Program-made: the position numbers and the translations under genes | The notes under the pieces: model-generated | Databases searched by the model: none | What the model was told of the DNA's origin: nothing | Seen by the model: the letters and a program-made list of their open reading frames with translations, nothing else | Shown: positions 5,781-34,923 of the stretch, piece after piece | Layout: every line of letters starts with the position of its first letter | How positions within the stretch are numbered: position 1 is the first letter of the stretch | Source: Alphaproteobacteria bacterium | GTDB lineage: Bacteria; Pseudomonadota; Alphaproteobacteria; Bin95 | Length of the DNA stretch: 64,000 nt | Direction of reading: 5' to 3' | Assembly: GCA_963665325.3 (NCBI GenBank) | Contig: CAXXWS020000002.1 | Span: 1,274,694-1,338,693, forward strand

Positions 5781-5872
5781 GTCACCCCGGCCCCCGAGCC
5801 GGGGTCCATCTCCCGGCCTGCGGGCCGGATGGCCGTGGCGGAGCTGGGCCCCGGCTCGGGGGCCGGGGCGAC
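5781..5872. repeat. inverted REP-like doublet (REPIN-like)
   Basis: GTCACCCCGGCCCCCGAGCCGGGGTCCA (5781-5808) and inverted copy TGGGCCCCGGCTCGGGGGCCGGGGCGAC (5845-5872); same unit as inside the repeats at 22472-24058 and 34675-34878. Confidence 0.85.
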
Positions 5873-21988: not shown

Positions 21989-22474
21989 ATGGAGTCGTTT
22001 GCACTAGAGGACATCTCCTACTGGCACTGGCTGGCCTTCGGCGTATTCCTGATGCTGGTGGAAATCCTGGTTCCGGGCGTCGTCTTCCTCTGGCTGGGAA
22101 TCGCCGCGGTCTTGACCGGCTTGCTGCTTGCTGTCGTGCCGGACACGGGCTGGCAGGCTCAACTGGTCGTTTTCGCCGTTCTGTCGGTAGCGGCAATCTT
22201 CTTCGGGCGCCGCTTTGTGGCTTCGAGGCAGAGGCCGACCGATCATCCGACCCTCAACCGGCGGGGCCGCAGCATGGTCGGCACGCGCGCCATTCTCCGC
22301 GATCCGACCGTCAGCGGTCGCGGCCGGATACGCATCGGGGACACGATGTGGGCGCTCCGCCTGGCATCGCCCGAGGGCGAACTCCCGGCAGACACCGAAG
22401 TGACGGTCGTTGAAGTGGACGGCGTGACGCTCGTCGTCCGCGAAATCCCCGAGGAGGCCGTCGAAGACGGCTAG
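21989..22474 (+). CDS. NfeD-family membrane protein (YbbJ-like)
   Basis: WHWL...EILVPGVVFLWLG, LNRRG, GRIRIGDTMW; partner of SPFH; TAG stop is the end of the repeat. Confidence 0.88.
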   Translation: MESFALEDISYWHWLAFGVFLMLVEILVPGVVFLWLGIAAVLTGLLLAVVPDTGWQAQLVVFAVLSVAAIFFGRRFVASRQRPTDHPTLNRRGRSMVGTRAILRDPTVSGRGRIRIGDTMWALRLASPEGELPADTEVTVVEVDGVTLVVREIPEEAVEDG

Positions 22475-22543
22475 AGTGGAATCCATTCGAATTGAACCGC
22501 AACTGGAACCGAACCCAAAACCGTCACCCCGGCCCCCGAGCCG

Positions 22544-22810
22544 TGTGTGGACGCCTCCCTGGATGCAAGCAGTTTTTTCGGCTTGGTCGGGCCTATGCGG
22601 TCAGGCGGAGTCGTGTGTCCGGTTTCCCTTGTGCGGCACTTGAGTTGCCGCGGGCCAGTATGGAGATACGCGGATCGGGTCCATATCGGGGTCATGCGCT
22701 CGCGGCGCGCCGGCTCAGCCTGGTTTTCCCGATCCCGTCTCATTGACCGTTTGCCCTTACCCCTTGCCTCGGCCTGCCTGCATCCTCCGACGGCTCGCCG
22801 CACCGCCTTC
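22544..22810 (-). ncRNA. putative bridge/seek RNA in the IS1111 3' non-coding end (exact RNA ends unknown)
   Basis: Stem GGAUCGGG/CCCGAUCC (22728-35/22672-79) encloses GAGCCGG and GACCCCG matching the two target strands; a downstream loop has ACACACGA matching the circle junction. Confidence 0.75.
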
Positions 22811-23842
22811 TCAGGCGGCTGCGGGAGCCCGGTAGGTCTCCTTCTTCACGGCCAGCGCCCACAGGATGCGCGCCATGCGATTGGCGAGCGCGACGGCGAC
22901 CAGCTTGCGCTTCCCTGGCTTGCTCGCCAGCAGGCGCGCCAGCCAGGGATCGTTGCACTTGCCCCGGCGGATGGCGTTCTGGATCACCGACATCGCCCCG
23001 ACCACCAGCAGGCGGCGCAGGTCCTTCTGGCCCATCTTCGAGATCTTGCCGAGCCGCGGTTTGCCGGCTGTACTGTGCTGGCGGGGCGTGAGGCCGAGCC
23101 AGGCAGCGAAGTCGCGCCCCTTGCGGAAGGTTTCGAGCGGCGGGGCCAGGGCCTGGAGCGCCAGCGCCGTGACCGGCCCCACCCCCGGCACGGTCATCGC
23201 GCGGGCCGCCTCCTCGTCCTCGCGCGCGGCGGCCCGCAGCGTCCGGTCCAGCTCTCTGACCTTCCCGTCCAGCTCGGCGATCCGTTCCAGCAGCAGTGCC
23301 CCCATCTCGTGCGTCAGCGCCGGCAGAGACGCCCCCTCTTCGCCCTCAAGTGCCCAGGCCAGACGTGCCACATGCGCCGGCCCCTTGGGAGCTACAAGGC
23401 CGAACTCCGCTAGATGGCCCCGCAGCGCGTTGATCGTCTGCGTGCGCTGGCGCACCAGAAGCATGCGCACCCCCAACTGCATCGCCCCCGCCTGGCTCTC
23501 CTCGCTCTTCACCGTCACGAAGCGCATGGTCGGGCGCTGCGCCGCCTCGCAGATCGCCTCCGCGTCCGCCGCGTCGTTCTTCTGCCGCTTCACATAAGGC
23601 TTCACATAAATCGGCGGGATCAGACGAACCTCATGGCCCAGCTTGCCGATCTCGCGGCCCCAGTAATGCGCACCCCCGCACGCCTCCATCGCAACCGTGC
23701 AGCGAGGTTGAGACAACAGAAACGCCAGAACCCGACCCCGCGACAGCTTGCGACGGAACGCCACCGAGCCGTCCGAATACGCGCCGTGCATCTGAAAGCT
23801 GTTCTTCGACAGGTCCACCCCGATGATGCTAACCTCCTTCAT
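22811..23842 (-). CDS. IS110-family DEDD recombinase/transposase
   Basis: IIGVDLSK, VAMEACG, KNDAADAEAI (DEDD), TVPGVGPVTA, GLTPRQHSTAGK (catalytic Ser); intact 343 aa. Confidence 0.96.
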   Translation of the reverse strand: MKEVSIIGVDLSKNSFQMHGAYSDGSVAFRRKLSRGRVLAFLLSQPRCTVAMEACGGAHYWGREIGKLGHEVRLIPPIYVKPYVKRQKNDAADAEAICEAAQRPTMRFVTVKSEESQAGAMQLGVRMLLVRQRTQTINALRGHLAEFGLVAPKGPAHVARLAWALEGEEGASLPALTHEMGALLLERIAELDGKVRELDRTLRAAAREDEEAARAMTVPGVGPVTALALQALAPPLETFRKGRDFAAWLGLTPRQHSTAGKPRLGKISKMGQKDLRRLLVVGAMSVIQNAIRRGKCNDPWLARLLASKPGKRKLVAVALANRMARILWALAVKKETYRAPAAA

Positions 23843-24055
23843 TGGATGCCTCCTTCCCATTGGGGGTTTCAACAACACCACCATGGCACATTGCGATGCC
23901 GTCGGATGGAGGCGTCCACCCTATCGGGGTCCAGAACCGCCTTCGAAATTTGGTGAAGCTCCGGTAGGCTGGACCCCGGATCTCCGCTCCGCTCCGTCCG
24001 GGGTGACAATTGAGGCTGCGCCTTCGACTTCGTTTCAACTCGAACGGACCGTGCT

Positions 24056-25351
24056 CTAGCCGGGCGGTCCCAGGCGGCGCACCCGGATTGCCAGAATTGC
24101 GGCCTCTGCGCCGTAGCCGGCCATCCAGGCGGCTAGTCCGATGACGGCGCCGTTGCCCCCCGGCAGCAACAGGGAGATCGCTGCAACCAGAGTGGCGGCG
24201 AAAACGCGGCCAAGCCCCGAAACCGCGAGCGCGCCTGTAACCCTCGCGCCCGCAAGCATGCCGCGAAAGACTGCCGACAGGCCCCAGAAGGCGGCCATGA
24301 GGAATGCAAACTGCATGGCCGGGGCGCAATAGGCTTCCAGCGCCGGCTCCAGGCCCATGGCGTCGGAAAGGACAAGGCGGTCCAGCGGTGTGTGGAACAG
24401 GAGCAGGGCGACAGCCCCGAAGAACAGCATCTGCTGCCCGGCAAACTTCAGTATCACGCGCCTGTCTTCGATTCGGCGCACGAGCGTCTGGGCGCTTTGC
24501 ACCAGATTGCGCAGCGGACTGAGCATCAGGCCCGCCAGGCCGTATACGATTGCGAACGCGGCGAGCGCCAGGTCGGGATTTGGAAGCCGGCCGAGGAACA
24601 CGCTGATGGCGAAGACCATCCCCATCTCGGCCGAGGTATTCAGCATCAAAGGCCAGGAAAAACGCCATTGCGCTCTCACGGTCGGCGGCGCTTCGCCGTG
24701 TTCGGGCAGTCCGGCATAGATGCGCCGGGCGAAGAAGACCGCTACCGCAGTCTCGCAAAACATGGCGAAGACCAGCGCACCGGCGCCGACTGCAGCTCCC
24801 TCCAGCACGAGCGGCAGTACGACGAGCGAGCCGGCGAGCGAGCCCAGCCGCGCGACAGTCGCCCAGGTGATGAAGATCGTCTTCTGTCCCATCATCAGCA
24901 GGCCGAAGGCGACCGACCGGCAGATCAGGATCGGGGCGCTGAGCGACAACAGGAAGGTCGCCGTCTTCGCCTCCGCGACCGCGGCGTCGCTGATTCCGAA
25001 CAGCGTCTGGAACGCGAAATCGCCGATGGGCGTGAAGGCCAGCACCTGCGCGACGGCCCAGGGGACGGCCACGATGACGCCCATGAACCGCAGTAGATGT
25101 GCGAGAGCGCGGCGGCTGCGGAGGTAGGAAAGCGTCAGGAGCGAGCAGACTTCCGTGCCGCTGGCGATGGAATAGTAGAGCGTGAAGGCGCTGTGAAAGG
25201 CCGCGAGCACGATGCTGCTGTCATCCATGCGCGCGAGGAAAGCGTTGATGACCGTCTTCGAGATCATGTTGAGTTCGGTCATGAAAATGAGCGGAACGAA
25301 AAACCGGTAGCAGGTTCCTAAAGTGAGTCCCCCTGCTGCCGCCCCGCTCAT
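24056..25351 (-). CDS. MATE/ANKH-like multi-pass membrane transporter
   Basis: two repeated halves (FFVPLIF...INAFLARM / FSWPLML...ISVFLGRL), about 12 hydrophobic segments. Confidence 0.6.
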   Translation of the reverse strand: MSGAAAGGLTLGTCYRFFVPLIFMTELNMISKTVINAFLARMDDSSIVLAAFHSAFTLYYSIASGTEVCSLLTLSYLRSRRALAHLLRFMGVIVAVPWAVAQVLAFTPIGDFAFQTLFGISDAAVAEAKTATFLLSLSAPILICRSVAFGLLMMGQKTIFITWATVARLGSLAGSLVVLPLVLEGAAVGAGALVFAMFCETAVAVFFARRIYAGLPEHGEAPPTVRAQWRFSWPLMLNTSAEMGMVFAISVFLGRLPNPDLALAAFAIVYGLAGLMLSPLRNLVQSAQTLVRRIEDRRVILKFAGQQMLFFGAVALLLFHTPLDRLVLSDAMGLEPALEAYCAPAMQFAFLMAAFWGLSAVFRGMLAGARVTGALAVSGLGRVFAATLVAAISLLLPGGNGAVIGLAAWMAGYGAEAAILAIRVRRLGPPG

Positions 25352-34674: not shown

Positions 34675-34878
34675 TAGAGCACGGTCTGTTCGAGTTGAAA
34701 CGAAGTCGAACGCGCAGCCTCAATTGTCACCCCGGACGGAGCGGAGCGGAGATCCGGGGTCCAGACTACCGGAGCTTCACCAGGTTTCGAAGGCGGTACT
34801 GGACCCCGGCTCGGAGGCCGGGGTGACAGTTTTGGGTTCGGTTCCAGTTGCGGTTCAATTCGCTTGGATTCCGCTCTA
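34675..34878. repeat. intact 204-bp TA-bounded repeat (MITE-like) with internal inverted REP doublet; empty IS target
   Basis: Ends TAGAGC...GCTCTA with imperfect IR extending to TTGAA/TTCAA; internal GTCACCCCGG...CCGGGGTCCA and TGGACCCCGGCTCGGAGGCCGGGGTGAC; core CG at 34807-08. Confidence 0.9.
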
Positions 34879-34923
34879 AATTGCAGTTTGTTCAAATTAT
34901 CGGAAATATTTCTTATTTTTCGC

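Follow-up and report, generated by a model that had tools for sequence, protein, structure and literature searches.

The non-coding end of 267 nt that lies 3' of the recombinase gene of the insertion sequence IS-A most probably encodes a functional two-domain bridge/seek RNA (we put the probability of this reading at about 0.9). IS-A is located in the window, i.e. the whole stretch of 64,000 nucleotides that was analysed, and it is itself, with high confidence and as a part of the same best explanation, an intact and recently active insertion sequence of the IS1111 group within the IS110 family. The evidence comprises the anatomy of the element, the matches between its guides and the DNA they would recognize, the covariation of these guides with targets and element ends across homologues, and the conserved secondary structure of the non-coding end.

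Anatomy of IS-A and of its insertion site

Comparison of the occupied site with an empty one delimits the element; the DNA has the following features:

22544-23924, minus strand: insertion sequence IS-A of 1381 bp, with a single CG core in addition (22542-22543 or 23925-23926), from the comparison of occupied and empty sites
22811-23842, minus strand: transposase/recombinase gene, 343 aa plus stop, starting with MKEVSIIG, from a Pfam match
23908-23919, minus strand: left subterminal inverted repeat GTGGACGCCTCC, 12 bp, preceded by the 5-nt extension ATAGG (23920-23924)
22547-22558, minus strand: right subterminal inverted repeat GGAGGCGTCCAC, 12 bp, after which come ACA as a 3-nt extension (22544-22546) and the CG core (22542-22543)
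34801-34812, plus strand: empty target GGACCC-CG-GCTC (GGACCCCGGCTC; in context ..CTGGACCC-CG-GCTCGGAGGCCGGGGTGAC..) in a paralogous repeat, on the 5' arm of the hairpin ACCCCGGC-N6-GCCGGGGT
5796-5807, minus strand: second empty 12-mer target in the window
23925-24043, minus strand: left part of the ~190-bp dispersed repeat that is interrupted by IS-A, the right part being 22472-22543, from blastn

The left junction reads ..GGACCC-CG-ATAGGGTGGACGCC.. (in a longer reading ..TCTGGACCC-CG-ATAGGGTGGACGCCTCC..) and the right one ..GGCGTCCACACA-CG-GCTCGG.. (in a longer reading ..GGAGGCGTCCACACA-CG-GCTCGGGGGCCGGGGTGAC..). CG is present at both junctions and only once in the empty site, and no duplication extends beyond this shared core. 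Since the uninterrupted paralogous site carries one CG, IS-A sits at a CG core, otherwise without duplication. The non-coding ends differ in length, with 267 nt downstream of the gene (22544-22810) versus 82 nt upstream of it (23843-23924). IS-A exhibits all sequence-level features of the IS1111 group, namely the domains, the subterminal repeats, the longer downstream end, the size and motif, and the site-specific insertion; according to PMC11208160, the subterminal inverted repeats of this group measure 7-17 bp and are flanked by short extensions at the termini. The occupied site is located between two long ORFs that face it (21989-22474 on the plus strand and 24056-25351 on the minus strand). 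A literature search for the 12-mers of target and repeats gave, among the papers listed, only unrelated ones as judged by title and abstract, and a search for an alphaproteobacterial element of this kind gave general papers only; the element may already be named, e.g. in ISfinder or in the supplements of these papers.

The recombinase matches two Pfam families, PF01548 (49.8 bits with a cut-off of 29, E-value 4.2e-13) and PF02371 (75.7 bits with a cut-off of 21.3, E-value 3.9e-21), and exhibits the motifs GVDLSK, AMEACG and KNDAADA of a DEDD (RuvC-like) enzyme. Its nucleophile motif is GLTPRQHS-TA (WLGLTPRQHSTA), in which Thr-Ala replaces the usual S/T-G; among 82 homologues, this variant was counted 2 times, TG 40 times and SG 35 times. 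IS1111 recombinases are described as proteins of 330-350 aa with a GL-P----S/T-G motif and, rarely, TA (PMC11187229, section 6). A sequence search of the PDB returned only a distant match, to the chains of IS621 and ISCro4, and thus gave no structure from the IS1111 group itself.

Three copies of IS-A that are 100% identical occupy three different loci of its own genome and share one target 12-mer, all of them being flanked by TGGACCC-CG on the left and CG-GCTCGGGGGCCGGGGTGACG on the right. The presence of identical copies at three different loci suggests that IS-A has moved recently. The other relatives in the genome are represented by IS-B (locus L004), a single-copy element with 73-75% identity, and by two fragments: a truncated 5' part of an IS-A-like element (L005:1501-1679, 91% identity) at ..CTGGCCCC-CG, and a solo right-end remnant of 31 nt (L009:1501-1531) at CG-GCCCGGGG. 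Both fragments are remains of earlier insertions at similar sites. No orphan copies of the RNA gene were detected: among 9 scored blastn matches in the genome, the non-coding end was matched only by the four elements and by the 31-nt remnant.

The exact target 12-mer occurs in the genome at 22 empty and 3 occupied sites, compared with 5.4 expected from base composition, and most of its copies form the hairpin GGACCCCGGC-N6-GCCGGGGTGAC. A genome blastn search with an intact copy of the surrounding repeat (window positions 34690-34885) revealed 12 copies of at least 150 nt that carry the target and two further copies that are split by IS-A, i.e. about 14. The 10-mer of the hairpin arm has 66 occurrences versus 50 expected, hence the motif is not highly amplified. 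The first-pass annotation had taken the target for a REP palindrome; the palindromic hairpin is indeed there, but the label of a classical, high-copy REP is doubtful, because most of the sites are inside the ~190-bp dispersed repeat, and the target is better described as a REP-like hairpin that belongs to a small family of repeats. The ~190-bp repeat carries two hairpins of the CCCCGG..CCGGGG type, and the target of a related element, L018 (GGACCC-CG-GATCTCC), is the reverse complement of the other one. One locus of the element's own genome (L003, approximately 1478923-1481200 of contig C1) contains four tandem copies of the repeat, one of which is occupied by IS-A. The match between guides and target described below would explain why this small repeat family is an insertion hot spot in this genome.

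Probable guides and conserved structure of the downstream non-coding end

The predicted RNA, encoded on the minus strand, has a target-binding and a donor-binding domain, with the following parts:

22672-22735, minus strand: target-binding domain, made of stem P1, helix P1b and inner hairpin P2, from RNAalifold and pair counts on 51 sequences
22728-22735 with 22672-22679, minus strand: stem P1, 8 bp, GGATCGGG/CCCGATCC (= GGAUCGGG/CCCGAUCC)
22721-22723 with 22681-22683, minus strand: helix P1b, 3 bp, CCA/UGG, which closes the target loop and is conserved with compensatory changes
22710-22716, minus strand: 5' target guide GAGCCGG (equivalent of 'RTG'), complementary to top-strand C-CG-GCTC, i.e. 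core plus right flank
22696-22708, minus strand: inner hairpin P2, GCG(C)...GCGC, between the two target guides
22687-22693, minus strand: 3' target guide GACCCCG (equivalent of 'LTG'), equal to the top-strand left flank plus core and thus complementary to the bottom strand
22605-22671, minus strand: donor-binding domain, from the fold and family helices 8 and 9
22669-22671 with 22605-22607, minus strand: outer donor stem GCG/CGC, tentative
22660-22665, minus strand: 5' donor guide CUCCAU (equivalent of 'RDG'), complementary to the left-end extension, imperfectly so in IS-A
22651-22633, minus strand: donor hairpin GCGGCA/UGCCGC, coordinates checked
22612-22618, minus strand: 3' donor guide ACACACG (equivalent of 'LDG'), with the sequence of the final 5 nt of the right end and of the core

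The two target guides sit in one internal loop, correspond to opposite strands of the target and overlap at the core. The P1 stem, the two guides in its loop, the GCGC hairpin and the hairpin of the second domain had all been placed by the first-pass annotation, and their minus-strand coordinates are correct; the additional conserved CCA/UGG helix of the target loop had been missed, as had the second donor guide, CUCCAU, while the 3' donor guide had been found. The same annotation had claimed that the guides match both strands of the empty target at 34801-34812 and run into its CG, which the junctions and the empty site bear out. A 'handshake' role considered for the AUA next to the 3' target guide was rejected, as several subgroups do not conserve, in the bases after the core, a match to the left end.

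Taken by itself, the guide/target match in IS-A is suggestive, not compelling. The same summed match length was obtained in 53 of 5000 dinucleotide shuffles of the non-coding end, and both matches in the right order within 40 nt in 5 of 5000. An extra 7-mer match to the target, CGAGCCG, lies outside the loop (22797-22791), hence 7-mers alone are weak evidence in such GC-rich DNA. These shuffles and the off-loop 7-mer are what could be said in favour of mere chance similarity between GC-rich sequences; the probability of this explanation is nonetheless negligible in view of the comparison with homologues, which provides the decisive support for the guides.

A protein-level scan of genome contigs yielded 80 loci with 48-90% identity (80 of 456 matches). 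The inverted repeats could be placed in 60 of them, which together with IS-A and IS-B gave 54 distinct non-coding ends; the remaining 20 loci had flanks that were too short or lacked a matching pair of repeats. All placed loci are organized alike: at the left end, the core of 2 nt precedes an extension of 6 nt and TGGAC.., and at the right end ..GTCCA precedes an extension of 4 nt and the core, which is CG, TG or AG. For 25 elements with mutually distinct targets, the mean match of the loop to the element's own target is 11.64 nt versus 8.41 nt (sd 0.30) after permutation, and none of 20000 permutations reached the observed value. This is the covariance check proposed by the first-pass annotation, and the guides do covary with the flanks. 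The matches are also specific to position: an exact match of at least 6 nt through the core between the 5' half of the loop and the reverse complement of core plus right flank was found in 23 of 46 own pairs versus 1.1% of 1960 non-self pairs, and between the 3' half and left flank plus core in 28 of 46 versus 0.5% of 1960. Thirty-four of the 46 elements exhibit such a match in either half, 17 in both and 12 in neither; the threshold is strict, requiring an exact match through the whole core, and several of the 12 misses do match but stop inside it. The chance explanation is contradicted by the permutations, by own-pair matches in about half of the cases versus about 1% of non-self pairs, and by the identity of a donor guide with the right end and core in 47 of 54 non-coding ends.

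Individual relatives illustrate the covariation. L010, the closest relative among the matches listed (90% amino acid identity), has the guides GAUCCGG and GGCCCCG and the flanks AGGCCC-CG-GATC; guides and flanks of IS-A and L010 differ in step, therefore both guides have changed together with the target. L018 carries the guides AGAUCCGGGGU/GACCCCG at GGACCC-CG-GATCT, IS-B from the same genome carries UCGUGGAGCA and AAUAAUG and is flanked by GGAATAA-TG-CTCCACGA, and in L017, L020, L023 and L028 the guide/target matches reach 8-11 nt. Natural redirection is visible between IS-A and each of L010, L016, L018 and IS-B. An AT core was considered for IS-B and ruled out, as the geometry of the family and three of the element's own guides specify TG; the core at its right junction is TC, with one mismatch to the TG specified by the guides. 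In IS-B, the inner hairpin is also duplicated (L004:1643-1689), together with the first part of the 3' target guide.

In the same 47 of the 54 distinct non-coding ends, the 3' donor guide is identical to the right end and core, its first 5 nt being identical in 52, and 12 variants of it match their own right end fully (including ACAUACG, AUACACG, ACAGAUG, ACGGAUG, ACACAAG, AUAUAUG, ACAGAAG and ACAAAUG). The first-pass annotation had matched ACACACGA (22618-22611) to the predicted circle junction; its first seven nucleotides covary with the right end and core, whereas the trailing A does not. The core contained in the donor guide is identical to the left genomic core in 51 of 54 cases and to the right one in 49 of 54, and it matches one of them where the two disagree. 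Disagreeing cores (e.g. TG on the left and CG on the right) are found at L028, L030, L032, L055, L061, L069, L072 and L076, and look like insertions into core-mismatched sites or later mutations. The 5' donor guide tracks the left-end extension of the homologues, as in the pairs CUCCAU/ATGGAG, CACCAU/ATGGTG, GGCAU/ATGC and, via G.U pairs, CUUCAUCA/TGATGGGG (guide versus reverse complement of the left end). In these comparisons, target and donor guides vary in step with the flanks and ends of the homologues.

On the donor side, IS-A deviates from its family. CUCCAU faces the left end ATAGGG of IS-A and L010 with one C.A mismatch and one G.U pair, and 2 of the 4 pairs of the family's inner donor stem GGCC/GGCC are broken in both elements at the aligned columns, the inner stem of IS-A being shifted. 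These defects, together with a Thr-Ala motif that only 2 of 82 homologues possess, could indicate that the RNA gene is real, but that its donor side has been crippled or altered in the lineage of IS-A and L010, whose copies would move poorly or recognize their donor in a relaxed manner. We regard this as quite unlikely: three 100% identical copies at three loci argue for recent movement, the TA variant is already in the literature (PMC11187229, section 6), and the fold contains an alternative pairing of IS-A and L010, CUGG/CCGG plus CCC/GGG, by which the donor domain would be restored according to the model. Under the preferred reading, with a working RNA, the Thr-Ala motif, the mismatched donor guide and the shifted donor stem appear as minor peculiarities of IS-A.

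The RNAalifold analysis of 51 sequences predicted the outer stem, the CCA/UGG helix, the small inner hairpin, and a donor GGCC/GGCC stem with its hairpin. Pairs were counted on the alignment for these helices and for two helices added by eye: 90.0% of cells are paired, compared with 26-37% when the partners are slid by 1-3 columns, 21 of 32 pairs have changed on both sides, P1, P1b and P2 all exhibit compensatory changes, and none of five structure measures was reached in 500 shuffles (0/500). The weakest helix is the outer donor stem (alignment columns 163-166/232-235; 74.5% paired), which is weak in IS-A and is kept as tentative. The 8-bp stem is present in the minimum-free-energy folds of IS-A. 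The folding energies of single sequences are unremarkable for this GC-rich DNA (z-scores of -1.6, -1.9, -0.4 and -0.9), and single-sequence folding was discarded as evidence because such z-scores are too weak. A search of Rfam with positions 22300-24200 and E-values up to 10 returned no bridge-RNA family, the sole match being a meaningless miRNA inside the gene.

The conserved structure could also belong to DNA. Compensatory changes fit a single-stranded DNA structure as well, and neither the RNA-library contigs nor the promoter scan described below amounts to direct evidence of an RNA; the non-coding end might then be a structured subterminal recombination site bound by the recombinase, and its target-like segments copies from former insertion sites. 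This is very improbable in our opinion, since the guides occupy a fixed place in a conserved loop, represent both strands and overlap at the core, i.e. they exhibit the geometry of guides and not that of a captured flank, and since ISEc11, ISPa11 and ISKpn4 are reported to co-purify with RNA from exactly this region, which is required for their transposition (PMC11187229).

Putative promoter, RNA libraries and proposed mechanism

A scan of the integrated IS-A for sigma-70-like promoters returned 0 sites. One conserved element could contribute to a promoter elsewhere:

22563-22568, minus strand: TTGCAT box, conserved, a putative -35 element of a promoter that would be completed only at the circle junction

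A TTGCNN box is located 19 nt from the tip of the right end in 46 of 51 elements. Because of this fixed spacing, the hexamer CA-core-AT falls 17 nt downstream of the box once the ends are joined; it reads CATGAT in 25 elements and CACGAT in 10, including IS-A. The candidate junction-spanning promoter of IS-A is TTGCAT-17 nt-CACGAT and, given the same fixed spacing, the programmable first base of the core would lie inside its predicted -10 element. This arrangement agrees with ISEc11, for which a promoter formed at the circle junction is described and a longer transcript is proposed as the source of the short RNA (PMC11187229, section 8).

Sequences from the non-coding end are present in RNA libraries, of which four runs were compared. 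A contig of 163 nt covers 22626-22788 with 0 differences and could derive from DNA; a contig of 374 nt from a relative covers 22540-22855 with 16 differences, with DNA carry-over being possible. Short contigs that stem from further relatives, in RNA libraries from different samples, have 22720-22763 in common and diverge from 22719, just upstream of the 5' guide (22716-22710), and one loose contig end resembles the guide region of an L011-type element. The contigs thus document presence in RNA libraries, and variable guides beside a conserved scaffold, and are not a proof of transcription; the uncovered parts in runs X1, X2 and X3 are uninformative, and the depth of the contigs does not tell which of the two, non-coding end or gene, is the more abundant.

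The following course of events can be proposed on the model of ISEc11 and IS621. IS-A would be excised as a circle, whose joined ends would create the junction-spanning promoter; the recombinase mRNA including its 3' end would be made and then processed to the guide RNA; complexes of recombinase and RNA would synapse the junction with GGACCC-CG-GCTC, and strands would be exchanged at the CG core. In the target loop, GAGCCGG would pair with the top strand (core plus right flank) and GACCCCG with the bottom strand (left flank plus core). In the donor loop, CUCCAU would pair with the left end; at the circle junction ..CACA-CG-ATAGG.., ACACACG would do so with the right end and the core. In this scheme the transcript, its processing, its binding by the protein and the chemistry are predicted.

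A wider joint reading of these data is tentative, and we consider it rather doubtful. In it, IS-A would belong to an IS1111 clade that occurs mainly in Alphaproteobacteria and is organized in an unusually rigid and legible way, characterized by fixed extension lengths, a simple internal donor loop in place of a multi-loop, and an N-G core; the first base of this core (C, T or A) would be set by the donor guide as well as by the two target guides, and would also be located inside the -10 element of the junction promoter. The clade would record at least 25 natural retargeting events, and the IS-A/L010 lineage would move despite its Thr-Ala motif and mismatched donor guide. If true, such a clade would reveal by natural examples how long the guides have to be, how much wobble they tolerate and which cores can be chosen in bridge recombinases of the IS1111 type. 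IS-A itself is a natural case that can be decoded cleanly from sequence: its four guides and its core of 2 nt are readable, as are an empty target and close relatives in which one or two bases of guide and target have switched. Its use lies in annotating such elements and in comparative material for reprogramming rules, with the current picture of the mechanism unchanged.

Comparison with known systems

The systems closest to IS-A are ISEc11, ISPa11 and ISKpn4. According to the text of PMC11187229, they share with IS-A a long non-coding region 3' of the gene, subterminal repeats with short extensions, a recombinase of 330-350 aa with the motif GL-P----S/T-G/A, and no evident internal promoter besides the one at the circle junction. 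The order of guides is also the same, the complement of the top strand being 5' of the complement of the bottom strand in IS1111 elements (PMC11187229, section 9). ISPa11 targets a repeated palindrome (REP), likewise the target of IS-A is a repeated hairpin, and the redirection between IS-A and L010 can be likened to the natural redirection between the relatives ISEc11 and ISXne4 (Siddiquee et al. 2024, PMC11187229). IS-A differs from ISEc11, ISPa11 and ISKpn4 in sequence, in host lineage and in its target GGACCC-CG-GCTC, and is known from sequence alone. It possesses a readable, covarying donor domain with two guides, while the text of PMC11187229 describes target matches.

IS621 resembles IS-A in having one RNA with a target loop and a donor loop (PMC11208160, PMC11208158), in the two guides of each loop, one directed at the left half (bottom strand) and one at the right half (top strand), which overlap at a 2-nt core, and in a recombinase with DEDD (RuvC-like) and Tnp domains. 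In contrast to IS621, as described in these papers, the RNA of IS-A is located in the right end, 3' of the gene, and not in the left end, the order of guides is reversed in each loop, with the 'right' guide 5' of the 'left' one (nomenclature of PMC11208158), and the core is CG (CG, TG and AG in the clade) instead of CT. The subterminal repeats are long in IS-A, the nucleophile motif is T-A instead of S-G, and the similarity between the two proteins is restricted to the C-terminal domain (34-40 bits).

ISPpu9 and ISPpu10 from Pseudomonas putida insert into repeated extragenic palindromes or hairpins (PMC12288879; bioRxiv 10.64898/2026.03.19.712850), and IS-A likewise into a repeated hairpin. 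For ISPpu10 the target hairpin is reported as a determinant (bioRxiv 10.64898/2026.03.19.712850), and the target of IS-A is also located in the 5' arm of a hairpin; for ISPpu9, the downstream Ssr9 RNA is reported as not required for transposition (PMC12288879). IS-A differs from both in host and sequence, and its repeat family is small, with ~25 sites. The first-pass annotation had described IS-A as an RNA-guided IS1111 recombinase with a CG core and a defined target, which the features of the group and the published architecture support. Bridge RNAs are predicted in 93.0% of IS1111 elements (Durrant et al. 2024, PMC11208160); because this prediction covers so large a part of the group and three of its members have been proven biochemically, an RNA guide in IS-A would be a fresh example of the mechanism described in 2024.
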